64,000 nucleotides of DNA from an uncultured archaeon. Its GTDB lineage: Archaea > Aenigmatarchaeota > Aenigmatarchaeia > GW2011-AR5. The stretch is from assembly GCA_964599215.1 (NCBI GenBank), contig CAZRDV010000001.1, positions 55,615 to 119,614 on the forward strand. Direction: 5' to 3'. Below the pieces are notes generated by a model, which saw only the letters and a list, made by a program, of their open reading frames with translations, was not told the origin of the DNA and ran no database searches. How positions within the stretch are numbered: the stretch's first letter is position 1; each line of letters starts with the position of its first letter. Positions 2,392 through 42,229 of this stretch are shown here, one piece after another. A program made the translations under genes and the position numbers.

Positions 2392-4980
2392 ATGGGTTTT
2401 AAGCTGGCTGCTGCCTTTTTTATTGTACTATTTCTGATAATGTTCATCCCGAGTGTATACGGTGATCTTCTCTGGTTTTCTTCTATAAATTATCAGTCCG
2501 TATTCTGGACAGTATTCACGACCAATGTCTATCTTTTTCTGGCAGGCACGGTAATCTTCTTCCTGTTCCTGTTTATTAACCTGAAACTGGTGAAACGGTT
2601 TTCGAAGAAGAATATATCCTCTTCTATAGTTTTGATAGTTATATTCTTTTCATTGCTACTGGGTATTGTTTTCAGCTCTGGCTGGGAAACTGCACTGAAA
2701 TTCTTCAACTCTGCGCCGTTCGGAACAACTGACCCGGTTTTTGGCAATGACCTGTCTTTCTATGCATTCGACCTGCCGTTTTACTATTATATTCTTTCAT
2801 ATTGTTTCATCCTTGTTATCTTCACAATTGCAATAACAACAATAATCTATATGGCCTATTTCAAGGTGTTTTCTGTCGAGAAGAACCAGAAAAATGTAAA
2901 AACAATGGGTCTGAAAACGAACTTCAAAAAATTCAAGTCAGCAAAAACCCATATCTCGGTGCTTCTTGCAATCCTGTTTTTCCTATTAGGAATATTTCTG
3001 TTCTTAAGCAGGTATGAGGTACTTTTTTCAACAAGAGGCGCGGTTTTTGGTGCTGGTTATACTGACCTGAATATACAACTGCCGTTCTTGCTGATATCAT
3101 CAATTGCCTCCTTTGTTGTTGGCTTTACACTACTTATATCAAGGAAGAAGCTACCGTTGATTGCTGTCTCAATATTGCTAGTTATTTTGTTTATTGGTTC
3201 TATTGCTGGTCTTGCTGTTCAGAAGCTTATTGTAGAGCCTGATGAGTTTACTGTAGAAAGGGAATACATATCAAGAAACATAGAGAATACAATAGAGGCC
3301 TATAACCTTGGTTTTGATGAGAAACAGTTCCCTGCTACCTATGACCTGACAAAAGATGATATAGATGATAACAGCGCCACCATCGACAATATAAGGCTCT
3401 GGGACTTCAGGCCATTGGTGAGAACATATAACCAGTTACAGATATTCAGGACATACTATGATTTTAATGATGTTGATGTTGACAGATATTACTTTGATTC
3501 GAATTATAAACAGGTTATGCTTTCTTCAAGGGAGCTTGACCAAGACAGTCTTGCAGATAAAGCCAAGACCTGGGTCAATGAGCACCTGGTTTATACACAT
3601 GGTTATGGATTGGCAATGAGTCCTGTTGACCGGGTAAGCGAGGGTGGGCTGCCGGAATTTTATGTCAAGGACATACCGCCTGTTGGCATGCAGATAGAAA
3701 GGCCTGAGATATATTACGGTGAAAAAACCGATGACTTTGTAGTTGTTAACACGAAGACAGAGGAGTTTGATTATCCAACAGGTGAAGAGAATGTATATAC
3801 AATATACGAGGGAGATGGCGGGATAGAGCTTAGTGCTCTGAGGAGATTGGCGTATGCAATGAAATTCGGGTCCGTAGAATTGCTGTTATCAGGATCCATA
3901 ACCGACCAGAGCAGGATAATGTTATACAGAAATATAGAAGAAAGGGTAAGCAGGATTGCTCCGTTCCTTAGTTATGACAATGACCCTTACATAGTCATAA
4001 GTGATGGAAAGATGTACTGGATTTATGATGCATACTCTACAACTGACAGGTATCCTTATTCTGAACCGATCGGGGGTTTCAATTACGTAAGAAACTCTGT
4101 TAAGATAGTGATAGACCCTTACAACGGTAAGCTTACATATTATATAATAGATGAAGAGCCCATTATCAATACATATAAAAATATATTTCCTGACCTCTTC
4201 AAAGACTTCTCTGAGATGCCGGATGATCTTAAAAAACACATAAGGTATCCTGAAGATCTCTTCAGCATCCAGGCCAGTCTTTATTCAACTTACCATATGA
4301 GGGACCCGAGGGTATTCTACAACAAAGAGGACCAGTGGATAATACCAGAAGAGATATACAGGAGCAGGAAGCAACAGATGGTGCCTTATTATGTGATAAT
4401 GAAACTGCCAGAAGAGGAAAAAGAGGAGTTCATCTTAATGATACCGTTTGTTCCTAGGGGTAAGGACAACATGATAGGATGGATGGCTGCAAGATGCGAT
4501 GATAGCTATGGAAATGTGATTGTGTACCTGTTCAGCAAACAGGAGCTTATCTACGGTCCTTTGCAGATTGAGGCACGTATCGACCAAGATACTGACATAT
4601 CACAGCTCATAACCCTATGGGACCAGGCAGGGTCTGAGGTTATAAGAGGCAATTTGTTGGTGATACCTATAGAGAATTCATTGTTGTACGTGGAGACGCT
4701 GTACCTGCAATCAAGCGAGACAGCAATACCAGAGCTGAAGAGGGTTATCGTGGCTTATGGTGATTCGTTAACAATGCAGGAAAGCCTGGAAGAGGCCCTG
4801 AACACAATATTCGGGGAGAGTGAGGCAGGACAAGAAAAAACAAAGGAAGAGCTAATCAGCCAGGCAATGGAACATTACAATAGCGCATTGGCGTACTTAA
4901 AAGATGGTGATTTCGCAAAATACGGCGAGGAAATAGAAAACCTTGGGTCATTGTTAGAAGCCCTTCAGGACACCGTCTAA
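2392..4980 (+). CDS. Large membrane protein, UPF0182/COG1615-like (about 7 N-terminal TM helices plus a large soluble domain)
   Basis: 862-aa ORF with multiple N-terminal hydrophobic helices and a long C-terminal soluble region. Family assignment is by architecture only. Confidence 0.45.
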   Translation: MGFKLAAAFFIVLFLIMFIPSVYGDLLWFSSINYQSVFWTVFTTNVYLFLAGTVIFFLFLFINLKLVKRFSKKNISSSIVLIVIFFSLLLGIVFSSGWETALKFFNSAPFGTTDPVFGNDLSFYAFDLPFYYYILSYCFILVIFTIAITTIIYMAYFKVFSVEKNQKNVKTMGLKTNFKKFKSAKTHISVLLAILFFLLGIFLFLSRYEVLFSTRGAVFGAGYTDLNIQLPFLLISSIASFVVGFTLLISRKKLPLIAVSILLVILFIGSIAGLAVQKLIVEPDEFTVEREYISRNIENTIEAYNLGFDEKQFPATYDLTKDDIDDNSATIDNIRLWDFRPLVRTYNQLQIFRTYYDFNDVDVDRYYFDSNYKQVMLSSRELDQDSLADKAKTWVNEHLVYTHGYGLAMSPVDRVSEGGLPEFYVKDIPPVGMQIERPEIYYGEKTDDFVVVNTKTEEFDYPTGEENVYTIYEGDGGIELSALRRLAYAMKFGSVELLLSGSITDQSRIMLYRNIEERVSRIAPFLSYDNDPYIVISDGKMYWIYDAYSTTDRYPYSEPIGGFNYVRNSVKIVIDPYNGKLTYYIIDEEPIINTYKNIFPDLFKDFSEMPDDLKKHIRYPEDLFSIQASLYSTYHMRDPRVFYNKEDQWIIPEEIYRSRKQQMVPYYVIMKLPEEEKEEFILMIPFVPRGKDNMIGWMAARCDDSYGNVIVYLFSKQELIYGPLQIEARIDQDTDISQLITLWDQAGSEVIRGNLLVIPIENSLLYVETLYLQSSETAIPELKRVIVAYGDSLTMQESLEEALNTIFGESEAGQEKTKEELISQAMEHYNSALAYLKDGDFAKYGEEIENLGSLLEALQDTV

Positions 4981-5680: not shown

Positions 5681-5962
5681 ATGGAACCGGTTGGCAGGGT
5701 CAGAATACCGAAAAAGGGCGAGATTCTGGGTATTATTGAGAGTACCCTAGGTGCGAGCAGGCTTAGGGTAAGATGCAATGACGGTAAAATGAGGATATGC
5801 AGGATACCGGGAAAGCTGAGAAAAAGGGTATGGATGCGTATTGGTGATGTTGTAATTGTTAAGCCCTGGGAGATACAAAATGATAATGGCGATGCAATAT
5901 GGAGATACACTGCTGCTGAAGCTGGATGGCTTAGAAGAAAGGGCATACTAAAAAGTTTCTAA
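5681..5962 (+). CDS. eif1a: Translation initiation factor aIF-1A
   Basis: OB-fold eIF1A signature [51 protein letters not shown]-like tatataaata lies about 35 nt upstream. Confidence 0.85.
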
Positions 5963-8009: not shown

Positions 8010-9063
8010 ATTAAAGGGGTTAGGTAGTGAAATAGAAGAGCAGATAGACAAGAAGCTGAACCCGAACATATCAATACCGATAAGGACCCTGTCAAATATA
8101 ATATACGACAAGTCCACAGGCCAGCTTACCCTTGGGGACAAGGTATCAAAAAGGTACTTCTTCAATGTTGCGCATGCAAAGAAATTTATGCAGACGATGA
8201 TGGTTGCATCTTTCTGCAATGATCTCATAGGCCAGAATATCCACGCAAGCATAAGGGACATGTTTTACAACCTTAAGAGGACATTGCCTGAAACAAGCGA
8301 GAATACCTTTGATGTTCAGAGCGAAAGCGATCCGATAATAATTGATCTTGAGGTTGCTCTGGATATCTTCAGGGAACAGCTTCATCTGACAACAGACAGA
8401 AAGGGCATAGTAGCAGGCAACGTCATAATAAAAGACAGGGGCGACAGCATTGACTGGTCTAAGCTTGGCAGCGGGGGCTGGTCAATACCCTCAACAGTAG
8501 AGGAAATAGAATTCAGTAAAGTAAATGCTGATTTCGTTCTTGTGGTTGAGAAAAATGCAGGTTTTGAACGCCTTCATGAAGATAAGTTCTGGCAAAAGCA
8601 TAACTGCATATTGATAGGAACCGGCGGGCAGCCGTCGCGTGGAACCAGGTTATTAATACAAAGGCTGAACAGGGAATATAAATTACCTGTATACGTTTTC
8701 ACGGACAGCGATGCATACGGGTGGTATATCTATTCGGTTATAAAGTCCGGTTCAATGAGTCTTGCCCATATCTCAGACAGGATAGCAACACCATCTGCAA
8801 AATTCATTGGACTAACCATATCAGACATATTCGAGTATGAACTGAAGAAATGTATCATCAAGGCAAGGGAGCTTGATATAAAGAGGGCGAAAGAGCTTTT
8901 GAATTACGAGTGGTTCAAGAGGCCGGAATGGCAGAAAGAGATAAACCTGATGATAAAGAAAGGTATAAAAGCCGAGATAGAGGCACTGTCACACCGTGGC
9001 CTGAAGTTCATGTCAGAAACATACCTGCCTGAAAAACTGAAGAAGAAGGCATTCCTTCCGTAA
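7978..9063 (+). CDS. top6A: DNA topoisomerase VI subunit A (Spo11-like)
   Basis: Toprim and winged-helix Spo11 architecture (FVLVVEKNAGFERL, IGTGGQPSRGTR). Overlaps top6B by 32 nt. Confidence 0.9.
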   Translation: MIRMKSKVNNKLKGLGSEIEEQIDKKLNPNISIPIRTLSNIIYDKSTGQLTLGDKVSKRYFFNVAHAKKFMQTMMVASFCNDLIGQNIHASIRDMFYNLKRTLPETSENTFDVQSESDPIIIDLEVALDIFREQLHLTTDRKGIVAGNVIIKDRGDSIDWSKLGSGGWSIPSTVEEIEFSKVNADFVLVVEKNAGFERLHEDKFWQKHNCILIGTGGQPSRGTRLLIQRLNREYKLPVYVFTDSDAYGWYIYSVIKSGSMSLAHISDRIATPSAKFIGLTISDIFEYELKKCIIKARELDIKRAKELLNYEWFKRPEWQKEINLMIKKGIKAEIEALSHRGLKFMSETYLPEKLKKKAFLP

Positions 9064-9133
9064 CTTTCTCTGATTTAATCTTTTAAATCCTTTATTTTAT
9101 AACTTTAATCGATAAAATAATAAGTATTTTGCT

Positions 9134-9231
9134 GCCTCGGTAGCTCAGTAGGTAGAGCAGTTGGCTGTTAAGTGCCTCAAGGCTCATCCACAGTAACCAA
9201 AAGGTCACAGGTTCGAGTCCTGTCCGAGGCG
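9134..9231 (+). tRNA. tRNA, probably tRNA-Asn(GTT), with an approx. 25-nt intron after position 37
   Basis: Acceptor stem GCCTCGG/CCGAGGC, D arm GCTC..GAGC, T arm ACAGG-TTCGAGT-CCTGT, anticodon loop CTGTTAA, discriminator G. Total 98 nt implies an intron. One mismatch at 27:43. Confidence 0.6.
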
Positions 9232-9241
9232 CTTAACTAAA

Positions 9242-9315
9242 GGGAAGGTAGCTCAGCCTGGGAGAGCACACGGCTGAAGACCGTGCTGTCGTGGGTTCAA
9301 ATCCCACCCTTCCCA
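9242..9315 (+). tRNA. tRNA-Phe(GAA)
   Basis: Cloverleaf GGGAAGG..CCTTCCC, anticodon stem-loop CACGG-CTGAAGA-CCGTG, T arm GTGGG-TTCAAAT-CCCAC, discriminator A. 74 nt, no encoded CCA. Confidence 0.9.
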
Positions 9316-9368
9316 TAATTTCTCAGCAAAACCAATCATTTTTTAAATATAAACGCCGAATAATAAGT

Positions 9369-9956
9369 ATGGCCTTTCAATACAGATATAAGGCATTCAC
9401 AATCAGCAACAAACTGTTAGGGGTTCTAAAAAGGAACAGCAGAGCCACAACCATAGTTTCTATTTTAATTATCCTAATCTTCTCGTTCTATCTGATAACA
9501 AGCAGTGTTACAGGTTATATCACATACACAGAAAACCTTGAAGCAAAGCTCAACGAAACGGAAAAAGACCTAGAAATCACAAAGGCCAGTATGGAAGCTT
9601 GCAGCAATAACCTGGCTGATACCAGAGACGACCTTAATTCATGTAATGCTGGCCTGGGTCAGAGCCAGTCACAGCTTTCAACCTGCGAAATACAAAGAAA
9701 TGATTTGACAGAAGAGAACTCACAGCTTGAATCAGATATGGCAGTGTGTGATTCAGAGAGAGCAGATTACCTAAACATGTATGAAACCCGGTTAGAGGCA
9801 TTTAATAACCTGGTTAGGAATTCTGTGAAAGCCATATGCTGCTCATTTAACGACATTGATTCTGGAACAACAAAAGAATGGGGAATAGCTGATAACAAGA
9901 TCGTCTGTACAGGAGGCTACCAGGTTAACTGCGGTACTGGAGAAACCAACTACTAG
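9369..9956 (+). CDS. Hypothetical membrane-anchored coiled-coil protein with a Cys-rich C-terminus
   Basis: ORF 9291..9956 overlaps tRNA-Phe, so the internal Met at 9369 was chosen. One TM helix, a coiled-coil region and a C-terminal CC..C..C cluster. Confidence 0.45.
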   Translation: MAFQYRYKAFTISNKLLGVLKRNSRATTIVSILIILIFSFYLITSSVTGYITYTENLEAKLNETEKDLEITKASMEACSNNLADTRDDLNSCNAGLGQSQSQLSTCEIQRNDLTEENSQLESDMAVCDSERADYLNMYETRLEAFNNLVRNSVKAICCSFNDIDSGTTKEWGIADNKIVCTGGYQVNCGTGETNY

Positions 9957-10003: not shown

Positions 10004-10582
10004 GTGATTATTATGGTGAAAAAGAAAAAAATCGAAAAAGAAATGATAAAAGAGGTTATAGATTCTGTCCTAGCAGAGGACAAGGTCCTTGTATTCGAAA
10101 ATATAGATCAGGTTTATGAGCCTGGATACTATGGTAAGGAATTAGAAAACAGGCTGGAATTGGCTCTTGTAGAGGCCTGTCTTTTATTGAAAAAGGGTAG
10201 GATAAGGATTATGAAAGGCACTCATCCGATGAAGTTCAAGGAATTATATGAGCATGCGTGTTCTTTTGATAAGCGTTTTCCTGAGAGATTCAGGGTCTAT
10301 GAAGACCTAAGGGAAAGAGGTCTTTTAGTTAGAACAGGCTACAAGTTTGGCTGTGATTTTAGGGTTTATGAGCGTGGTGTGCAGCTGAAGAAGGGCCCGA
10401 AGGCTGCCAAGGAGCATACTAAATGGGTTGTGTTTTGCGTGCCTGAGGATTACACCTGCTCTTTCCAGGAGTTATCCAGGGCAGTGAGGCTGGCACATAA
10501 CATAAGGGCAAGGATGCTGTGGGCAATAGTTGACAATGAAGGGGATTGCACATATCTACAGATAACAAGGCACAAGCCATAG
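10004..10582 (+). CDS. endA: tRNA-splicing endonuclease
   Basis: C-terminal catalytic block YKFGCDFRVYERG...H...K is typical of archaeal EndA. Consistent with intron-containing tRNAs in the window. Confidence 0.8.
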   Translation: MIIMVKKKKIEKEMIKEVIDSVLAEDKVLVFENIDQVYEPGYYGKELENRLELALVEACLLLKKGRIRIMKGTHPMKFKELYEHACSFDKRFPERFRVYEDLRERGLLVRTGYKFGCDFRVYERGVQLKKGPKAAKEHTKWVVFCVPEDYTCSFQELSRAVRLAHNIRARMLWAIVDNEGDCTYLQITRHKP

Positions 10583-10590
10583 ATGATAGT

Positions 10591-11724
10591 ATGCTTGTAA
10601 AGGACCTGATGAATAAGAATGTTGTCTACTGTGAACCTGATGAATCAGTAAGCCAGGCGTTGGGCCTGATGAAAAAATATAAGGTACATCAGTTGCCTAT
10701 TATAAAAGACGGTGAACTGACAGGAATCTTGATATTAAACAAGATCATCACCAGGGAGATAGACCCTCTAAAAACCAAGATATCAACTTTAATGATACCT
10801 TCTCCTAGATTAAGTCCTGATGCTTCTTCAGAGGATGCAATAAAATTACTCCTGGGTTCAAACCTCAGGGCAGTTCCTGTTTTCGATTCCAAACTCAGGG
10901 GAATGATATCTGAACAGGACCTGATGAAGGCTGTTAAGGCTGAAGACAAAATAGCTGTTGAGAAGTGTTGCTATATCGAAGAGGATAGTAATATAGGAAA
11001 GGTCAAGAGCCTTATGATACACAAGAACGTATCAAGGGTTCCTGTTGTAAAGAACGGTAAGTTCATAGGGGTCATTGGCACGCTTGACCTGATAAAGGTC
11101 TTGGAAGGTAAAAGAAGATTTGAGGCACGGCACGGCAGATTAAAAGACAGTGGATACAAAGAGGGCCACAGGGCTCATATTGATAAAATTTCTGTCAGTG
11201 CTGTTATGAGAGAACCGGTTATCCTAAAAGCTGATTATAGTAGCAGCGAGGTTGTTGAATTATTAAAAGAGAATGAAGAGGTTCTGATAGAAAACGGTGC
11301 TCTTGGCCTGATAACAGCAAAGGATATACTAAGGTCAACTGTAAAGCCAAGCAGTTTTTCTTATGTCCAGATAACAGGCATAACAGATGAAGGTGCAATT
11401 GTAACTGATAAAATACATCAGGCAGCTTCAGAATTGGTACAAAGGCTTTCCAGATCAGTAGAGCTGCAGCCAATGAAGATACATATAAAGAAACACAAGA
11501 AGCTAGGGCCAAAAACCAAATATTCTTTGCATATAGAATTGCCTACCTCTCTTGGTCTGTTTGTTTCAACAAAAACACACGGGGTTGGGAAGACCTATGC
11601 TGATCTGCCTACACTTGTTCAGAAAGCTATGAATAATCTTGAGAAGGAGATAAGAAAGAAAATAGAAAAGGGTAGGAGAACAGAAAAGAGAAGGGTTTCT
11701 TCAAAAAGATTAGGAAAAGAGTAG
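10591..11724 (+). CDS. CBS-domain protein (four CBS repeats plus a basic C-terminal tail)
   Basis: Repeated CBS-like segments (VHQLPIIKDGELTGIL; RAVPVFDSKLRGMISEQDL; SRVPVVKNGKFIGVIG). Start moved to an internal Met to avoid overlap with endA. Confidence 0.55.
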   Translation: MLVKDLMNKNVVYCEPDESVSQALGLMKKYKVHQLPIIKDGELTGILILNKIITREIDPLKTKISTLMIPSPRLSPDASSEDAIKLLLGSNLRAVPVFDSKLRGMISEQDLMKAVKAEDKIAVEKCCYIEEDSNIGKVKSLMIHKNVSRVPVVKNGKFIGVIGTLDLIKVLEGKRRFEARHGRLKDSGYKEGHRAHIDKISVSAVMREPVILKADYSSSEVVELLKENEEVLIENGALGLITAKDILRSTVKPSSFSYVQITGITDEGAIVTDKIHQAASELVQRLSRSVELQPMKIHIKKHKKLGPKTKYSLHIELPTSLGLFVSTKTHGVGKTYADLPTLVQKAMNNLEKEIRKKIEKGRRTEKRRVSSKRLGKE

Positions 11725-11727
11725 TTT

Positions 11728-13212
11728 TTATAGAGCCTCTAAATTCTCTCCGCTCAGGAATTCCCTAAGCTTTAGACAGAGTTCCTCTTTTTTGATCCTT
11801 ACCTGTTTCATGGAGTCACGGTCCCTCAGTGTTATACTACTGTTTTCCAATGTTTCATAATCTATTGTTATTGAGGCTGGTACTCCTATCTCGTCCATTC
11901 GTCTATACCGCCTGCCTATGCTGCCTGAATCATCATAGAATACATTGAACCCCAGGCTCTGGAGCAATTTTTTAATCTCTATTGCTTTTTCTGGTAGTTC
12001 ATCTTTATTAACAAGAGGGAATACTGCTGCATCATATGGTGACAGTATTCTAGGGAATCTGAAGACATTTCTTTCTTTCTCTTCTTCGTAGGATAGCAGC
12101 AATAACGCATAGATGTTTCTGTCTACTCCAAAGCTTAATTCCAGTACATGAGGAATAAGTTTCTTTCCATCCACTGAAATAGACATATCCTGTTTTGATA
12201 TCTTCTGGTGTCCGTCGAGATCGTGCGAGGTTCTGTAGTGAATGCCTGCTACCTCTTTCCATTCTAATTCTTCAAGAAAGAGCTCAACATCCCAGTGGTA
12301 TTTGTTATAGAATGCCTTTTCCTCATCGTTCAATTCCTTTAAACGAAATTTGTCTCTTGGTATTTTTAATAAGTCCAGATAAAACTGCTGTACCTTTGCC
12401 ATATGATAAACATAAAACTTCGGTAGTTTCAGGTCTTTGCATGCTATTTCATCTATTTTGTTGCTTTTCCTGTTCTCTTTGGTTAATATCCTAAGCTTGT
12501 AATTCTCTATTTCCTTGAAATTATTATGTTCATTGATTTTATCAGGGTCGAAAAATATTTGTAACTCTGCTTGGCTGAACTCCCTCATCCTTAGGAGCGC
12601 ATTTCTCGGAGAAATCTCGTTTCTGTAAGCCCTGCCTATGATTGCAAGACCCAGAGGCAGCTTTCTTCTAAGGCACTCAAACTCTCTTCTAAAGTTAAGG
12701 TAGGCTCCCTGTGCGGTTTCCGGCAGTAAATATGCCTTCTTCTTATCAGAGCCAGTACCGACGTCAAGAGGGAACATCATGTTTAGGATGCCGGCTTCGT
12801 CCAATGTGCCCTTGCATTTAGGGCACTTTATGCCATGCTTTTTTATAAGCGCCGAAAGTTCCTTTGGTGACAGACCCTCAAAGTTCTCCTTGAGTTCTGA
12901 TTCAACAATATGGTCAGCCCGTTCTGTTAAGCCGCATTTCCTGCACTTGACAATGGGATCAACAAAGCTTTCGAGATGGCCTGAGGCCTTGAAAACATTT
13001 TCCGGCATCACAAACGATGTTTCTATCTCATAAAAATTATCATCCGTCCCCAGGAAAAAGCCTCTCCAGGTATTTTCCCATTTTCTCTTTAACAGGGCTC
13101 CAAGATGCGCATAGTCATAAAAGCCTGATAAGCCTCCGTATATCTCAGAGCTTTGCCAGAAAAAACCGCGACGCTTGGCTATATCATCTATAGTGTCTGT
13201 CTTATTAACCAT
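11728..13212 (-). CDS. glyS: Glycyl-tRNA synthetase (archaeal/eukaryotic type)
   Basis: N-terminus KRRGFFWQSSEIYGGLSGFYDY and class II motifs, 494 aa. Confidence 0.85.
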   Translation of the reverse strand: MVNKTDTIDDIAKRRGFFWQSSEIYGGLSGFYDYAHLGALLKRKWENTWRGFFLGTDDNFYEIETSFVMPENVFKASGHLESFVDPIVKCRKCGLTERADHIVESELKENFEGLSPKELSALIKKHGIKCPKCKGTLDEAGILNMMFPLDVGTGSDKKKAYLLPETAQGAYLNFRREFECLRRKLPLGLAIIGRAYRNEISPRNALLRMREFSQAELQIFFDPDKINEHNNFKEIENYKLRILTKENRKSNKIDEIACKDLKLPKFYVYHMAKVQQFYLDLLKIPRDKFRLKELNDEEKAFYNKYHWDVELFLEELEWKEVAGIHYRTSHDLDGHQKISKQDMSISVDGKKLIPHVLELSFGVDRNIYALLLLSYEEEKERNVFRFPRILSPYDAAVFPLVNKDELPEKAIEIKKLLQSLGFNVFYDDSGSIGRRYRRMDEIGVPASITIDYETLENSSITLRDRDSMKQVRIKKEELCLKLREFLSGENLEAL

Positions 13213-18119: not shown

Positions 18120-18235
18120 TGGGCGCGACGGGATTCGAACCCGCGACCCCTAGCTTTCTTCCTATCATCCTGGAATCAAATCTTCTATCCCTAAGATAGA
18201 AGGCTAGTGCTCTATCCAAGCTGAGCTACGCGCCC
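18120..18235 (-). tRNA. tRNA-Arg(TCT) with an approx. 41-nt intron after position 37
   Basis: On the reverse complement: acceptor GGGCGCG/CGCGCCC, D arm GCTC..GAGC, anticodon stem CTAGC/GCTAG with loop CTTCTA|intron|A, T arm GCGGG-TTCGAAT-CCCGT, discriminator A. 116 nt total. Confidence 0.65.
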
Positions 18236-32406: not shown

Positions 32407-32492
32407 TAGCCCTGGTAGGATTCGAACCTACGTCACGAGGTCCAGAGCCTCGTATCCTTGACCATTTTCCAGATAATCTAGACCACAGGGCT
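32407..32492 (-). tRNA. Candidate tRNA-Gln(CTG) with about 13 extra nt in the D-loop (possible non-canonical intron)
   Basis: Reverse complement: acceptor AGCCCTG/CAGGGCT, anticodon stem-loop CGAGG-CTCTGGA-CCTCG, T arm GTAGG-TTCGAAT-CCTAC, discriminator A. The D-arm region is 31 nt rather than about 17-18. Confidence 0.5.
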
Positions 32493-32511
32493 TTATAAGA
32501 AATAGAATGAA

Positions 32512-32745
32512 TTAAACACTTAAATCTTTCAGTAGCTTGTTTCCCTTCCTTGTTATTATGAAACATGTAGAACCAAGCGGGTTTATAGCCCTTATCAGAT
32601 TCTTTTCAATCAGATTCTGAGTAGCAGAGTCTACAATGCCTGTGCTGTCAGGGCTGTTCAGGGTGTTTTTTAGCTCGATTTTTGTAGTTAACTTGGCTTC
32701 TCCTATTTTCTTCAATATCCTTTCTTCTGTTTTTGTTATGTCCAT
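32512..32745 (-). CDS. Small hypothetical protein, possible winged-helix
   Basis: 77-aa ORF. Weak support. Confidence 0.3.
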   Translation of the reverse strand: MDITKTEERILKKIGEAKLTTKIELKNTLNSPDSTGIVDSATQNLIEKNLIRAINPLGSTCFIITRKGNKLLKDLSV

Positions 32746-39611: not shown

Positions 39612-42229
39612 TTTTCCCACATCAAAACTTTTATCAGGCTTGGCCCCCATAGCCATCTCAAGCCTTTTAGATTCTTGGTTTCAGTAGCTATATTCCCTTC
39701 TCCTGCCTCCACATAGTCGCTTATTTCATTCTCAAGCCTTTGTATTGCATCAGCTGTTGCTGATTCATAACTGTCTAACATATCACCGTATCCTACTGAA
39801 CCACTTACCCTTATAGTATAGATGATTCTGTTGTCTGGAGATCCGCCCGTAGCATTGCTCGGCTCTACGCCGGTTCCAATCCTTACAGAGTTGTTTCCTG
39901 AGCTTATGTAATCTAAGGGTATCTGAACTATGTATGGATCTCCAAGGCTCTGGTAATCAACAATATAATCACCGAGCCAGTATATACCTGTCCAGTCGAT
40001 TAAAGGATTATTCACATACACGCGATCTGTCCAGAATTCTGAAGAATAGGATGTAATCTTAGCATCAGCTATTCTCACTTTCTCTGATACATTGAACCAC
40101 CCTTCTTTATATGGAATATCTATGGTGTCACCTGTGAAGTTTCTAAATCTTGCAGTTTCACGTGTCAGGGAGATCTCTCCGTATTCATACGGTAGTATGT
40201 TGGGTGTATAATCAAACCCTATATAAGAATCCGGATAAAGGATGTTTCCTGCTGAGATGTTACCGTCTATAGTTATTACCTGTGCCTTGTATCGTATCAC
40301 TATATTCTCAGCTATACGGCGGTATATCTCTCTCAGTTCTTCTGAATCAGCACTGGCGTAGTAAAGTCCTTCTCCACAACTTGCAATTGACCTCAGGGTC
40401 CAGTTTGCGTTTGGACAGCTTGCTACAGGACCAAATCCTATAGAGTGCACCACTGCGTCCAGATCGTTATGAACCCTGCAGGAAGAGTAATTTGCATTTT
40501 GCATTGCACCATTGCAGCTATTACCAGTGCAATCTGATGCACTGCCGAAACAGTCTGTGAATTGTGATGCTGTACTGGTTCCTGTTGAATTACAGCTTAT
40601 ACAGAAAAATAAGAACCAATCAGCGCAGCCGCAGCATGCAGAAGGAATTCCGTCAGACATAACAATTATATATTTTTCCCTGGAGGAGTTGCTGTAGGTA
40701 TTCAGGATATTGTATGCCCTGTTGATTGCACAACAGATGCAGGTGCCTCCTGAAGGCTCTTCTGGATAACCATCAATATGAGTTATTAATTCTTCTCTTG
40801 TTGAACCAAGGTCAGGCGTGTATACATAAGCATCGGAATTAAAGCCGACCAGTCCCATTCTATTGCCTGTGACATTCATGATGATGTTGATGAATTCTTT
40901 GTCAAGGCATCTGGCCAGGCTTATTCTGCTTGTGTTTGAGCTGTTTATTTCTGGATCACCACAATCTGAAATTACATTACCGTCATCGCTGCTGTTCATC
41001 TTCCAGTTCATACTTCCTGAAAGGTCTGTTATAAGAATAACATCTGCTTGCCCTTGTTTTATAAAGAGTGGTGATCCAGGTTCCAATCCAAACCTTATTG
41101 GTATTGTTTCTTCACTAAGATGTTCGTAATCCAATCCTGTTAAGGCAAGACTAGAATTTATTTCTGTGTTGTTCAGAAAAACGGTCTGTTCTCCTGAGGC
41201 ATTGCTCTTATAGACAGTTGCATTACCGATTGTAAATAAGAGGGTTGCATTTTCTATGTTGTTTAGATAGTGCAGGGATGCATTCATAGAACTTATGTTT
41301 CCTTGGACATAGAAAGACGAATACAGATTAATAAGTCCGTGTATACCTGGGAAATAGTACCTGCTGTTTGGTTTATCAGTAATCATCTCAGAGGTGTTGT
41401 AGCTGACCCTGAGGTATCCGCCGCCTATATAACTCCCGTTTCCTGTAAAGTTGATGTTGATTATATTGTCGCCAGAATTAAAATTATCTAGGTAGCTATA
41501 ATTGATGTTCCATGTGTCTGCTGTCATGTTTCCGTCACCAGAAGATTTAGTATAGAAGCCTGAATCCTGGTTGTTTATGTACAAGCTGAAGTTGTTGCCT
41601 GCATTGAATTCAATATAAGCCTCATTCACAACCTCGATTATTGGCAGAGTTATGATTCTAGTTATGTTTCCTTCTCCGACAAAACCTCCGAAGTATGCAT
41701 AGGCTGATTCTGTCTTACTCTTTATGCTTGTTAGAAATGCCCTTGCAAGGTAACCCTGGGTTGGTTTTCCAACCATGTAACCTGTTTCTATCCTGGCTGA
41801 AACTGCTGTATTTCTCTCTGACAGGCTGCATGAAGAATATATAGATTCATTTTCAAGATAGAGGCCAATACAGAAATCAAGAGTAATCCTTTCCATGACC
41901 TCTTTAGATATATTAAGCGCTATTGACCTGTTGCCGGCGTACCAGAAACTGGCAATCAGGTCTAATATTGTCTTGTTCAGGTCTGCTTCTTTTATGACAT
42001 TCTTCGATACTAAGTTTGCTATGGTCGGCTTATCAATGAAACTAGATGCCTTTAGGTGGGAGATTGCTTCCATGGTGTCATCCGCAATATAGCTTAGCTT
42101 TTCATATTGTCTTTCCTGAAATGTACTTTCTGAACTCCAATAGCTGCCGAACATTAGAATAGATAACAGCAAGATAGACGTCCCTAAGAGAATGTCTAAT
42201 GTAAACACGAATCCTTTTTTCATTTCCAC
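39608..42229 (-). CDS. Large secreted vWA-domain glycoprotein, putative pilus tip adhesin
   Basis: N-terminus MEMKKG|FVFTLDILLG. vWA/MIDAS motifs DLSGSM ... VMSDG at about aa 395-640 with a Cys-rich insert. More than 25 N-glycosylation sequons. 873 aa. Confidence 0.8.
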   Translation of the reverse strand: MEMKKGFVFTLDILLGTSILLLSILMFGSYWSSESTFQERQYEKLSYIADDTMEAISHLKASSFIDKPTIANLVSKNVIKEADLNKTILDLIASFWYAGNRSIALNISKEVMERITLDFCIGLYLENESIYSSCSLSERNTAVSARIETGYMVGKPTQGYLARAFLTSIKSKTESAYAYFGGFVGEGNITRIITLPIIEVVNEAYIEFNAGNNFSLYINNQDSGFYTKSSGDGNMTADTWNINYSYLDNFNSGDNIININFTGNGSYIGGGYLRVSYNTSEMITDKPNSRYYFPGIHGLINLYSSFYVQGNISSMNASLHYLNNIENATLLFTIGNATVYKSNASGEQTVFLNNTEINSSLALTGLDYEHLSEETIPIRFGLEPGSPLFIKQGQADVILITDLSGSMNWKMNSSDDGNVISDCGDPEINSSNTSRISLARCLDKEFINIIMNVTGNRMGLVGFNSDAYVYTPDLGSTREELITHIDGYPEEPSGGTCICCAINRAYNILNTYSNSSREKYIIVMSDGIPSACCGCADWFLFFCISCNSTGTSTASQFTDCFGSASDCTGNSCNGAMQNANYSSCRVHNDLDAVVHSIGFGPVASCPNANWTLRSIASCGEGLYYASADSEELREIYRRIAENIVIRYKAQVITIDGNISAGNILYPDSYIGFDYTPNILPYEYGEISLTRETARFRNFTGDTIDIPYKEGWFNVSEKVRIADAKITSYSSEFWTDRVYVNNPLIDWTGIYWLGDYIVDYQSLGDPYIVQIPLDYISSGNNSVRIGTGVEPSNATGGSPDNRIIYTIRVSGSVGYGDMLDSYESATADAIQRLENEISDYVEAGEGNIATETKNLKGLRWLWGPSLIKVLMWEK

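Follow-up and report, generated by a model that had tools for sequence, protein, structure and literature searches.

Three of the four tRNA genes in the 64-kb stretch of archaeal DNA analysed here (64,000 nucleotides, hereafter the window) are interrupted, and the tRNA-splicing endonuclease (EndA) encoded near two of the four carries, by alignment, a basic loop next to its catalytic histidine. The window covers housekeeping genes on a DPANN chromosome of the Aenigmarchaeota type and comes from a lineage in which tRNA introns are unusually common. It adds a good new instance to a phenomenon already on record, the co-occurrence of L3-loop EndA with disrupted tRNA genes in DPANN. Taken as a whole, an explanation that joins an intron-rich DPANN lineage, a spliced mini-intron in tRNA-Gln, and an L3-bearing, α4-type EndA is in our judgment probably correct. 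The first-pass annotation of this DNA had listed interrupted genes of 98, 116, and 86 nt with inserts of 25, 41, and 13 nt, beside an intronless tRNA-Phe; these counts and lengths were reproduced, by Rfam for Asn, Arg, and Phe and by reading of the sequence for Gln.

Two of the interruptions follow the classical pattern. The tRNA-Asn(GTT) gene (9134..9231, + strand, 98 nt; Rfam 60.7 bits) consists of exon 1 (9134-9170), a 25-nt intron at 37/38 (9171-9195), and exon 2 (9196-9231); Rfam cmscan places 26 bases after position 37 where the model has one, which gives the 25-nt insert. The tRNA-Phe(GAA) gene (9242..9315, + strand, 74 nt; Rfam 68.1 bits, and ARAGORN) is intronless and begins 10 nt downstream of tRNA-Asn, and the two are probably co-transcribed. 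In tRNA-Arg(TCT) (18120..18235, - strand, 116 nt; Rfam 57.4 bits), cmscan likewise locates a 41-nt insert after position 37, so that exon 1 (18235-18197) is followed by an intron at 37/38 (18196-18156) and exon 2 (18155-18120). Scanning both precursors for bulge-helix-bulge (BHB) motifs yielded, in each, just one pair of cuts by which the anticodon loop is regained: tRNA-Asn has a central helix with 4/4 pairs (CTGT/ACAG), 4 outer and 1 inner base pairs, and the bulges TA|A and TA|A, and tRNA-Arg has a 4/4 central helix (CTTC/GAAG) with 5 outer and 2 inner base pairs. The two inserts are canonical BHB (hBHBh') introns at 37/38, bulge geometry included, in the positions that had been proposed for them, and the motif on the junction scan is perfect.

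Removal of either insert leaves a standard cloverleaf with the 7-nt anticodon loop intact, as seen with ARAGORN and in the Rfam alignments, and the genes spliced in silico were called tRNA-Asn(gtt) and tRNA-Arg(tct) by ARAGORN. Run in its default or intron mode, the same program misplaced the introns and named the genes Thr(agt) and SeC(tca), assignments that in-silico splicing ruled out. We propose that the anticodon arm and intron of pre-tRNA-Asn and pre-tRNA-Arg(UCU) would fold as a classical BHB, that EndA would cleave both 3-nt bulges, and that the exons would be joined by an RtcB-type RNA ligase whose gene lies outside the window. Rfam and a T-arm scan found no further tRNA or T-arm-like site in the window beyond the four tRNAs; T-arm-like matches at 39872 and 41079 fall inside a long ORF and were dismissed as chance.

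The third interruption lies in the D-loop of tRNA-Gln(CTG) (32407..32492, - strand, 86 nt), recognized by direct reading of the sequence and by ARAGORN after removal of the insert. Read directly, the gene is a cloverleaf with 13 surplus bases in the D-loop, AGCCCTG TG GTCT AG[ATTATCTGGAAAA]TGGTCAA GGAT A CGAGG CTCTGGA CCTCG TGAC GTAGG TTCGAAT CCTAC CAGGGCT A, in which exon 1 (32492-32478) and exon 2 (32464-32407) flank the insert, a putative mini-intron at 15/16 (32477-32465, ATTATCTGGAAAA). The locus scores 27.7 bits in Rfam against a threshold of 29, because the model skips the D arm. Whether a tRNA finder would call this locus had been put forward as a check on it: ARAGORN placed the gene at exactly 32407-32492 but typed it, unspliced, as Ile(aat), and returned tRNA-Gln(ctg) once the 13 bases were removed in silico. 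An alignment of the window with two orthologous loci (L012 and L008) revealed an A/T-rich block with TTTAAG/TTTAAT motifs directly upstream (32493..32560, - strand), where ~70 nt are largely invariant, whereas downstream of the TTT run the three sequences diverge immediately. The block is promoter-like in composition and position and may serve as the promoter. In the proposed mechanism, the tRNA-Gln(CUG) precursor would contain a 13-nt D-loop mini-intron, most likely between positions 15 and 16, and the 5' strand of the D stem (G10-U13) would pair with GGAA in the 3' part of the intron, which mimics the true D-stem 3' strand GGAU. After cutting and ligation the D stem would re-pair normally and close a 9-nt D-loop, AGUGGUCAA.

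The intron-like character of the Gln insert emerges from its orthologues, whose pattern suggests that it is excised. In L008 and in L012, the one further orthologue obtained through synteny with the adjacent TrxR gene, the exons are identical to those of the window at 73 of 73 positions (n = 3 genes including the window), and the inserts of the window, L012, and L008 measure 13, 13, and 11 nt, respectively, with the sequences ATTAATTGGAAAA and ACTTTGGAAAA in the latter two. The neighboring TrxR is 89% identical in L012, and 72% identical and syntenic in L008; no tRNA adjoins TrxR in L013-L018. Identical exons, a variable insert, and a conserved upstream block together indicate that the gene is under selection and that the insert evolves faster than the exons. 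With inserts also found elsewhere in homologous genes, the evolution of this element appears intron-like.

D-loop inserts of 15-31 nt also occur in five further tRNA-Gln genes, found in metagenomes and MAGs (L001, L002, L004, L009, and L011; the L003 and L007 sequences are identical to L002). For all five, the sole cut pair that restores a canonical D arm has a 4/4 central helix, for which the background rate is 2.1%, and 2-8 bp in its inner helix. Some of these genes have their D-loop intron at 20/21 or 21/22, within a full BHB, a C-G to U-A change between L002 and L011 is compensatory within the central helix, and the intron of L004 lies at 15/16, the site favored for the window, with a related 3' end (CTGGACGA|TGG) and a full helix. 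A scan of the genome collection contributed one of these loci, L001, from a Nanoarchaeia MAG. Three of the ten matches from the metagenome scan (L005, L006, and L010) were discarded as bacterial tRNA-Gln genes whose upstream match was due to chance.

The first-pass annotation had proposed that the Gln insert is spliced from the D-loop like the other two introns. The insert is real, located in the D-loop, and intron-like in its orthologues, but its BHB has only 3/4 central pairs when cut in the register that returns the D-loop to normal; because the motif is degenerate, the junctions cannot be fixed exactly and splicing can only be inferred. That register (A), which gives the 9-nt D-loop, places G10 opposite A26 in the window, L012, and L008, and forms neither an outer nor an inner helix in any of the three. 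Under strict BHB criteria, scanning of the Gln precursor gave no motif restoring a canonical D-loop, and minimum free energy (MFE) folding of the precursors from the window, L012, and L008 favored no structure competent for splicing, the 5' junction of the window precursor being buried in a 6-bp hairpin. Two other registers (B and C) have a 4/4 central helix and an AAA 3' bulge but leave the D-loop at 11 or 13 nt. It is possible, though we think unlikely, that the true junctions are these and not 15/16: cuts behind positions 16 and 27 (register C) would release an 11-nt intron and leave the mature D-loop AGAAUGGUCAA, and cuts behind positions 17 and 26 (register B) would release a 9-nt intron and leave a 13-nt D-loop. 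The 4/4 helix of both registers, with the AAA 3' bulge and 1-2 outer pairs, is present in the window, L012, L008, and L004; AAA 3' bulges recur in the clade (tRNA-Asn of L019 and L021, and L002 and L011); and in register C the strand of the 3' helix and the bulge together coincide exactly with the invariant TGGA+AAA, and the loop exactly with the variable bases. Against these registers, when the D arm is compared with its uninterrupted form in L001, L009, and L011, the inserted block is uniquely A16-A28, so the ancestral AGUGGUCAA is regained in register A alone; register B would make the mature sequence differ among orthologues; and in L004 the longest inner helix (5 bp) belongs to register A. 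D-loops of 11-13 nt would, tentatively, also alter the short alpha region that is paired with a 4-nt variable loop in Glu/Gln-type tRNAs, as in E. coli tRNA-Glu.

The missing strict BHB, the Rfam score under threshold, and a most stable fold that conceals the 5' junction would also be expected if the 13 bases were simply retained, either in a tRNA that works with a 22-nt D-loop or in a decaying pseudogene. We consider this very unlikely, given that the exons are 73/73 identical beside a protein that is only 72-89% identical, that the upstream block is conserved, that the indel and the substitutions are confined to the insert, and that the D-loop inserts of relatives are demonstrably of the BHB type. 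At ~75% neutral identity, the chance of 73 unchanged bases is ~1e-9, which argues against a pseudogene, and we know of no functional cytoplasmic tRNA with a 22-nt D-loop. The ARAGORN output for the unspliced gene would make 32407-32492 a type-II-like tRNA-Ile(AAU) whose variable arm is long, a reading to which we assign almost no probability and which is effectively refuted. Its parse turns the insert into the anticodon loop and the true anticodon arm into the variable arm; removal of the insert produces a standard Gln(ctg) cloverleaf, the L008 gene with its shorter insert is called Gln(ctg) by ARAGORN even unspliced, and the exons match tRNA-Gln genes elsewhere. To our knowledge, AAU is not used as an archaeal Ile anticodon. 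A mini-intron excised between positions 15 and 16 is the reading that we prefer for tRNA-Gln.

The other two interrupted genes also differ in their introns among relatives. Two syntenic loci whose EndA is 75% identical to that of the window (L019 and L020) encode a tRNA-Asn without the 37/38 intron and with a 13-nt D-loop intron (central helix 4/4), and their tRNA-Arg(TCT) has introns of 15, 17, and 28 nt at the D-loop, 29/30, and 40/41, each with a 4/4 central helix; splicing of the latter in silico leaves a 75-nt tRNA-Arg(tct). In L021 and L022 (EndA 88% and 85% identical), tRNA-Asn has introns of 10 and 11 nt at 37/38. Orthologous Asn introns are, in other words, 25, 11, or 10 nt long at 37/38 or 13 nt long in the D-loop, and the Arg gene has one intron or three.

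The endA gene (10004..10582, + strand; Pfam) encodes 192 residues from a GTG start (189 from the ATG at 10013), with PF02778 at residues 20-82 and PF01974 at residues 92-184. It was earlier described as a single endA about 0.8 kb from tRNA-Asn; the distance agrees (773 nt downstream of tRNA-Asn, 689 nt downstream of tRNA-Phe), and the word single holds for the 64 kb in which it could be checked, where there is no paralogue. No second EndA-family gene was found within ±10 kb of endA in L019-L022 either. The proximity of endA to the tRNA genes is conserved synteny of housekeeping genes and is not evidence for a functional unit. Among solved structures, the best relative over the full length is the α4 EndA of Methanocaldococcus jannaschii (1a79, E 9e-33), and homologues with 67-96% identity are named Candidatus Aenigmarchaeota. 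Judged from these similarities, the protein is predicted to be a single-unit, M. jannaschii-like EndA of the α4 type. Its acidic L10-type loop, VDNEGD, aligns at the motif level with VDADGD of M. jannaschii; in α4 enzymes this loop resides on the subunit with the active site and enables dimers to self-assemble as a tetramer. A search for exact copies of the window EndA returned no recorded contig.

Between the catalytic Tyr and His, the alignments indicate a basic L3 insertion of the Nanoarchaea/ARMAN-2 type (residues 126-137, 10379..10414, + strand; VQLKKGPKAAKE), directly before catalytic His138. It adds 6 residues relative to M. jannaschii, for a Tyr-His spacing of 15 residues versus 9, and aligns gap-free to the α subunit of Nanoarchaeum equitans (NEQ205; VIPKKGKRSERE), where LKKGPKAAKEH of the window faces PKKGKRSEREH. 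The loop is almost invariant in 120 close EndA homologues. Neither a CSL (L1) nor an ASL (L2) loop, which are insertions early in the catalytic unit that bear the conserved RNA-binding Lys, is present, as no insertion longer than one residue relative to M. jannaschii was found in residues 20-120. The window loop corresponds to the NEQ-specific loop, residues 90-98 (Hirata 2012), which is the L3 of Kaneta et al. (2018, NAR, PMC5829648). L3 has been tied in that literature to relaxed specificity (Kaneta 2018, PMC5829648), in line with the earlier suggestion that D-loop introns here go with a relaxed-specificity endonuclease. We propose that the lysine-rich L3 beside the catalytic His would let EndA accept relaxed substrates; against this, in ARMAN-2, mutation of the equivalent loop lysines had no reported effect on activity or specificity in the account of Hirata 2012.

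The Tyr/His/Lys triad of this EndA is incomplete. Y246, H257, and K287 of 1r0v align with Y122, H138, and A169, and a second alignment agrees; Tyr122 and His138 are present and Ala169 (codon 10508..10510, + strand) occupies the position of the catalytic Lys (M. jannaschii K156, A. fulgidus K287). The same column is Ala in 119 of 120 close EndA homologues. An EndA without this lysine may be less active, or may need a partner gene outside the 64 kb. One form of the latter, in which EndA is a structural or partly active subunit working with a second EndA-family protein in an (αβ)2-like assembly, strikes us as improbable. The Ala at the K156/K287 position, in the window as in 119/120 close homologues, would fit it, as would a two-unit protein (P0241) that scores close and the diversity of DPANN EndA architectures, which include α4, (αβ)2, and ε2 (Kaneta 2018, PMC5829648). 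Against it, the protein keeps Tyr122, His138, the RNA-binding Arg162, and the L10-type loop, its family is strongly conserved, and neither the window nor the ±10 kb around endA in L019-L022 contains a paralogue. Structural β subunits normally lose the Tyr and His as well. The L3-bearing DPANN enzymes, moreover, were classed as α4 (Kaneta 2018, PMC5829648).

Another reading, conceivable yet doubtful, is that the clade combines fast-turnover tRNA introns like those of Thermoproteales with a homotetramer-type EndA whose active site is rewired, the triad Lys (Ala169) being replaced by an L3 lysine such as K132 of the invariant G-P-K. It would cover introns of 7-13 nt, positions in the D-loop and stems, up to three introns per gene, and introns that do not form a complete BHB, and the L3 loop would also admit substrates with only a short helix flanked by single strands. 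Compensation by a loop lysine found no specific support, since a basic residue occupies the loop position in both Lys-keeping and Lys-lacking L3 loops; the only association that holds is that of triad-lysine loss with long loops.

L3-loop α4 EndAs of DPANN lineages have been associated with more disrupted tRNA genes (Kaneta 2018, PMC5829648), and the enzymes described there resemble that of the window in being single-unit, with an insertion by the catalytic His and non-canonical and multiple tRNA introns. Theirs is a survey-level correlation whose text, as far as it is accessible, names no Aenigmarchaeota case, whereas the window provides specific genes, intron positions, and turnover; nor does that portion of the paper mention a loss of the triad lysine, which marks the window family. 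N. equitans NEQ205 (PDB 3iey) shares with the window EndA a Tyr-His loop of equal length and a K-K-G-basic pattern, and non-canonical BHB motifs are among the substrates cut by the enzyme of N. equitans (cited in Kaneta 2018, PMC5829648). In contrast to the full-length window protein with its L10-type loop and Ala, NEQ205 is a shortened α subunit that needs the β subunit NEQ261, is devoid of an L10-type loop, and keeps the triad Lys. The homotetrameric α4 prototype from M. jannaschii (1a79) has both domains, the triad Tyr and His, and the L10 motif in common with the window EndA, but it is devoid of L3, retains K156, and in the accounts of Kaneta 2018 and Hirata 2012 counts as an enzyme strict for canonical BHB motifs.

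The first-pass annotation overstated its case in calling a D-loop intron notable outside Thermoproteales: non-canonical or D-arm introns are documented in Methanopyrus kandleri (a D-arm HBh' intron in tRNA-Glu), Thaumarchaeota, N. equitans, and ARMAN. As in the genes described here, Thermoproteales, Thaumarchaeota, M. kandleri, and ARMAN-2 (with a BHL pre-tRNA-Cys) have introns outside 37/38, including the D arm, at up to three per gene, with relaxed HBh'/BHL motifs and with intron positions that differ between orthologous genes. Their enzymes are of other kinds, (αβ)2 or ε2 with CSL/ASL loops in Thermoproteales, Thaumarchaeota, and ARMAN-2 and (αβ)2 without a specific loop in M. kandleri, whereas the EndA of the window is α4-like with L3 only. 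The introns also differ from those of the four lineages in that many are very short (10-13 nt) and in that the window Gln insert has no complete central helix in the favored register.

In summary, the window offers a gene-level case for the proposal that loop insertions in EndA have co-evolved with the disruption of tRNA genes in DPANN. In genomes of this kind, standard tRNA finders call too few genes, as the tRNA-Gln gene, sub-threshold in Rfam and mis-typed by ARAGORN, illustrates, and this affects both the tRNA complement and the completeness estimates of DPANN MAGs. Together, a very short, BHB-poor D-loop insert and an EndA without the triad lysine raise the questions of what a splicing endonuclease minimally requires of its substrate and of its active site.

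Four tRNA loci were found in the window, and no further tRNA-like elements beyond them. Three score above the Rfam threshold: tRNA-Asn(GTT) at 9134-9231 (+; 60.7 bits), in which 26 bases follow position 37 where the model has 1; tRNA-Phe(GAA) at 9242-9315 (+; 68.1 bits), which is uninterrupted; and tRNA-Arg(TCT) at 18120-18235 (-; 57.4 bits), in which position 37 precedes an insert of 41 nt. The fourth, tRNA-Gln(CTG) at 32407-32492 (-), was recognized by direct reading of the sequence; its Rfam score of 27.7 bits, itself obtained with the D arm skipped, lies below the threshold of 29. The first-pass annotation had counted three interrupted tRNAs out of four, and indeed Asn, Arg, and Gln carry an insert and only Phe does not; its tRNA lengths, insert sizes, and 0.8-kb distance to endA were all correct. 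Since only 10 nt separate tRNA-Asn from tRNA-Phe (9231-9242), the two are probably on a single transcript. In L022, a relative at the endA locus, the pair is 261 nt apart with a called 81-aa ORF in between.

We scanned all cut-site pairs against the archaeal rule for bulge-helix-bulge (BHB) motifs, i.e. a 4-bp helix between two 3-nt bulges, with a cut after the second base of each bulge. In tRNA-Asn, the pair 37/62 releases a 25-nt intron, with a complete central helix (4/4, CTGT/ACAG), a 4-bp outer helix formed by the anticodon stem, and two TAA bulges, each cut after TA. In tRNA-Arg, the pair 39/80 in gene coordinates, equivalent to position 37/38, releases a 41-nt intron, with central, outer, and inner helices of 4/4 (CTTC/GAAG), 5 bp, and 2 bp, respectively. 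ARAGORN identified the in silico spliced products as Asn(gtt) and Arg(tct). The junction check proposed earlier thus returned the canonical motif for both genes, and these anticodon-loop introns are textbook BHB introns. By eye, CTTCTATC in pre-tRNA-Arg (18182-18202, -), which comprises the anticodon loop and the first intron bases, is perfectly complementary to the intronic GATAGAAG; this 8-bp hairpin is a competitor of the BHB fold and would hide the 5' splice site together with the anticodon.

The tRNA-Gln reads directly as acceptor stem AGCCCTG/CAGGGCT, D stem GTCT/GGAT, anticodon arm CGAGG-CTCTGGA-CCTCG, a 4-nt variable loop, and T arm GTAGG-TTCGAAT-CCTAC, and its D-loop, AG-ATTATCTGGAAAA-TGGTCAA, exceeds the usual AGTGGTCAA by 13 bases. 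ARAGORN called tRNA-Ile(aat) at the same coordinates, which we rejected, the sequence being a Gln(CTG) cloverleaf; once the 13 bases are deleted in silico, the program reports tRNA-Gln(ctg). The same gene lies 5' of the thioredoxin reductase (TrxR) gene in two syntenic relatives, L012 and L008 (TrxR 89% and 72% identical to that of the window, respectively; L008 flanking DNA ~72-76%). Across the three loci the exons are identical at 73/73 positions and the ~70 nt upstream are also conserved; the downstream sequence diverges at once. The window insert reads ATTATCTGGAAAA, and its counterparts are ATTAATTGGAAAA (L012) and ACTTTGGAAAA (L008); the differences and a 2-nt indel are confined to the 5' half, with TGGAAAA invariant. 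Identical exons around a variable insert, together with the upstream conservation, argue against a decaying pseudogene, and the comparison shows a weaker constraint on the insert than on the tRNA body.

Five more tRNA-Gln genes with D-loop inserts, of 15-31 nt, were retrieved from other uncultured lineages when public genomic and metagenomic sequences were scanned by pattern (L001, L002, L004, L009, and L011; the L003 and L007 genes are identical in sequence to L002). The sole named source among the five is that of L001, a Nanoarchaeia MAG. In all five, the only cut pair restoring a canonical D arm also meets the BHB rule, with an inner helix of 2-8 bp and a 4/4 central helix, which occurs in 2.1% of arbitrary cut pairs; between L002 and L011 the central helix shows a compensatory change, from C-G to U-A. 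The L004 intron interrupts its gene where the window insert does, at 15/16, and the intron 3' ends are related (CTGGACGA in L004 and CTGGAAAA in the window, each followed by TGG). Rfam gave 26-33 bits for the genes of L001, L008, L011, and L012 and no reported match for those of L002, L004, and L009, and ARAGORN missed the L001 gene, finding no tRNA. Genes of this kind are likely under-annotated.

The BHB motif of the window tRNA-Gln is degenerate, with three possible registers. Register A (cuts after 15 and 28, 13-nt intron) has a 3/4 central helix (U13-G23, C12-G24, and U11-A25, with G10 opposite A26), no outer helix, a 5' site within a 9-nt hairpin loop, and a mature 9-nt D-loop, AGUGGUCAA. 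Registers C (cuts after 16 and 27, 11-nt intron) and B (cuts after 17 and 26, 9-nt intron) each combine a 4/4 central helix with an AAA bulge, the outer helices being 1 and 2 bp and the D-loops 11 nt (AGAAUGGUCAA) and 13 nt, respectively; the mature D-loop of register B is not the same among the orthologues. The inner helix is 0 in all three registers. L004 is compatible with each of them, its inner helix being longest in A. At minimum free energy, the window precursor folds into a 6-bp hairpin burying the 15/16 junction; this extension is not kept in L012 or L008. A short D-loop goes with a 4-nt variable loop in Glu/Gln-type tRNAs, such as E. coli tRNA-Glu. We favour register A for the putative intron because A16-A28 is the unique placement of the inserted block when the uninterrupted D arms of L001, L009, and L011 serve as the reference, and because only its removal restores a short D-loop matching the 4-nt variable loop.

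Intron turnover was apparent in relatives at the endA locus. L019 and L020 (EndA 75% identical to that of the window, same gene order) have an intronless tRNA-Phe, as in the window, and a tRNA-Asn (L019 9777-9862) without the 37/38 intron and with a 13-nt D-loop intron (cut pair 20/33, complete 4/4 central helix, AAA bulge), removal of which yields the exact D-loop of the window gene, AGTAGGTA. Their orthologous 135-nt tRNA-Arg(TCT) genes, identical to each other (L019 17690-17824 and L020 17664-17798, -), contain three BHB-type introns: a D-loop intron of 15 nt, one of 17 nt at 29/30, and one of 28 nt at 40/41, the central helix being 4/4 in all three; the remaining 75 nt are tRNA-Arg(tct) for ARAGORN, and the window gene has a single intron, of 41 nt, at 37/38. 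In L021 and L022, which are closer relatives (EndA 88% and 85% identical), tRNA-Asn (5872-5954 and 8864-8947, respectively) has 37/38 introns of 10 and 11 nt, versus 25 nt in the window; the central helix is 4/4, the outer helix 4 bp, and the inner helix essentially missing, so that these are bulge-helix-loop (BHL) mini-introns. The lineage thus appears intron-rich, with introns that change position, and short introns (10-13 nt) whose 5' site sits in a small loop are usual for the clade, a style that the window Gln insert fits. The tally of three introns in four genes for the window and four in three for L019 covers far too few genes to generalize; Chan et al. 2021 give means of 0.21 (archaea overall) and 0.84 (Thermoproteales) introns per gene.

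Both Pfam domains are present in the 192-aa window EndA, and its best solved match is 1a79, the M. jannaschii homotetramer subunit (E 9e-33, full length). The acidic L10-type loop, missing from the N. equitans alpha subunit, is kept (VDNEGD, for VDADGD in M. jannaschii), and the alignment contains no insertion in its N-terminal half, where the crenarchaeal CSL and ARMAN ASL sites lie. Its N-terminus (10004-10060) is a lysine-rich tail (MVKKKK...), also present in homologues, often before an acidic variable linker, and absent from M. jannaschii and N. equitans EndA. Six extra residues separate the catalytic Tyr122 and His138, and LKKGPKAAKEH in this region aligns gap-free with N. equitans PKKGKRSEREH. 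The insertion corresponds to the NEQ-specific loop (residues 90-98, with K93, K94, K96, and R97; Hirata et al. 2012), later named L3 by Kaneta et al. 2018 (PMC5829648). That paper associates L3-bearing alpha4-type EndAs of several DPANN lineages with more disrupted tRNA genes. Given the L3 loop and this association, the earlier proposal that EndA must accept relaxed substrates agrees with the published hypothesis, in which the role of L3 in alpha4 enzymes is putative. Neither activity nor specificity is reported to have changed when the equivalent loop lysines of ARMAN-2 were mutated (Hirata et al. 2012).

The A. fulgidus triad Y246/H257/K287 (1r0v) aligns to Y122/H138/A169 of the window EndA, and the M. 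jannaschii numbering, counted in the sequence, agrees (Y115, H125, K156). The Ala169 codon (10508-10510, +) thus occupies the position of the lysine (K287; K282 in ARMAN-2) that hydrogen-bonds to the scissile phosphate (Miyata et al. 2025), and the column is Ala in 119/120 close homologues. Among 150 representatives of 50%-identity clusters, counting only domains with both Tyr and His, this lysine was absent from 9 of 19 domains with a long Tyr-His loop (13 residues or more) but from only 4 of the 125 short-loop domains (Fisher p ~9e-7, uncorrected for phylogeny). The hypothesis that a loop lysine substitutes for the triad lysine is without specific support, because a basic residue follows the conserved glycine in Lys-keeping and Lys-lacking long loops alike. 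The best-scoring representative, P0241 (360 aa), is an EndA of two units, each with Tyr and His, Ser at the triad-lysine position, and a long Tyr-His loop; in usual alpha'2 enzymes the N-terminal unit is degenerate.

EndA homologues (67-96% identity) are metagenomic, the named ones being Candidatus Aenigmarchaeota or archaeon GW2011_AR5. The window encodes archaeal housekeeping proteins (topoisomerase VI B and A, GlyRS, PheRS alpha and beta, LeuRS, AlaRS, FtsZ, RadA, RPA, ribosomal proteins L1 and L10, HMG-CoA reductase) and two pilus-assembly loci, but neither RtcB nor a second EndA-family ORF was found within its 64 kb. An 862-aa protein of the uncharacterised family UPF0182 (2392-4980, +; full-length Pfam match, 928 bits) is encoded between a pilus-assembly gene and NMD3. 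Because the order TopoVI-B, TopoVI-A, (tRNAs), EndA, CBS protein, GlyRS, PheRS is common to relatives, the proximity of endA and tRNAs is conserved synteny, not an operon-like unit. In L021, the endA, CBS, and GlyRS genes are separated by two LAGLIDADG-domain ORFs with weak or faint Pfam matches (8424-9560, -, and 11331-12569, +), which may be mobile homing-endonuclease-like insertions, as they are missing from the window, L019, and L022.

A literature search found no paper specifically on Aenigmarchaeota tRNA introns. The first-pass annotation had regarded a D-loop intron as notable outside Thermoproteales; however, non-canonical and D-arm introns are already documented in M. kandleri, Thaumarchaeota, N. 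equitans, and ARMAN, and the DPANN-L3 link is published as well (Kaneta et al. 2018). Since all features fall in known categories (37/38 BHB introns, relaxed non-canonical BHB/BHL motifs, multi-intron tRNAs, and a loop-bearing EndA), the finding is a real, well-supported further example of a known phenomenon, of experimental interest for its BHB-poor 13-nt Gln D-loop insert and its lysine-less EndA.
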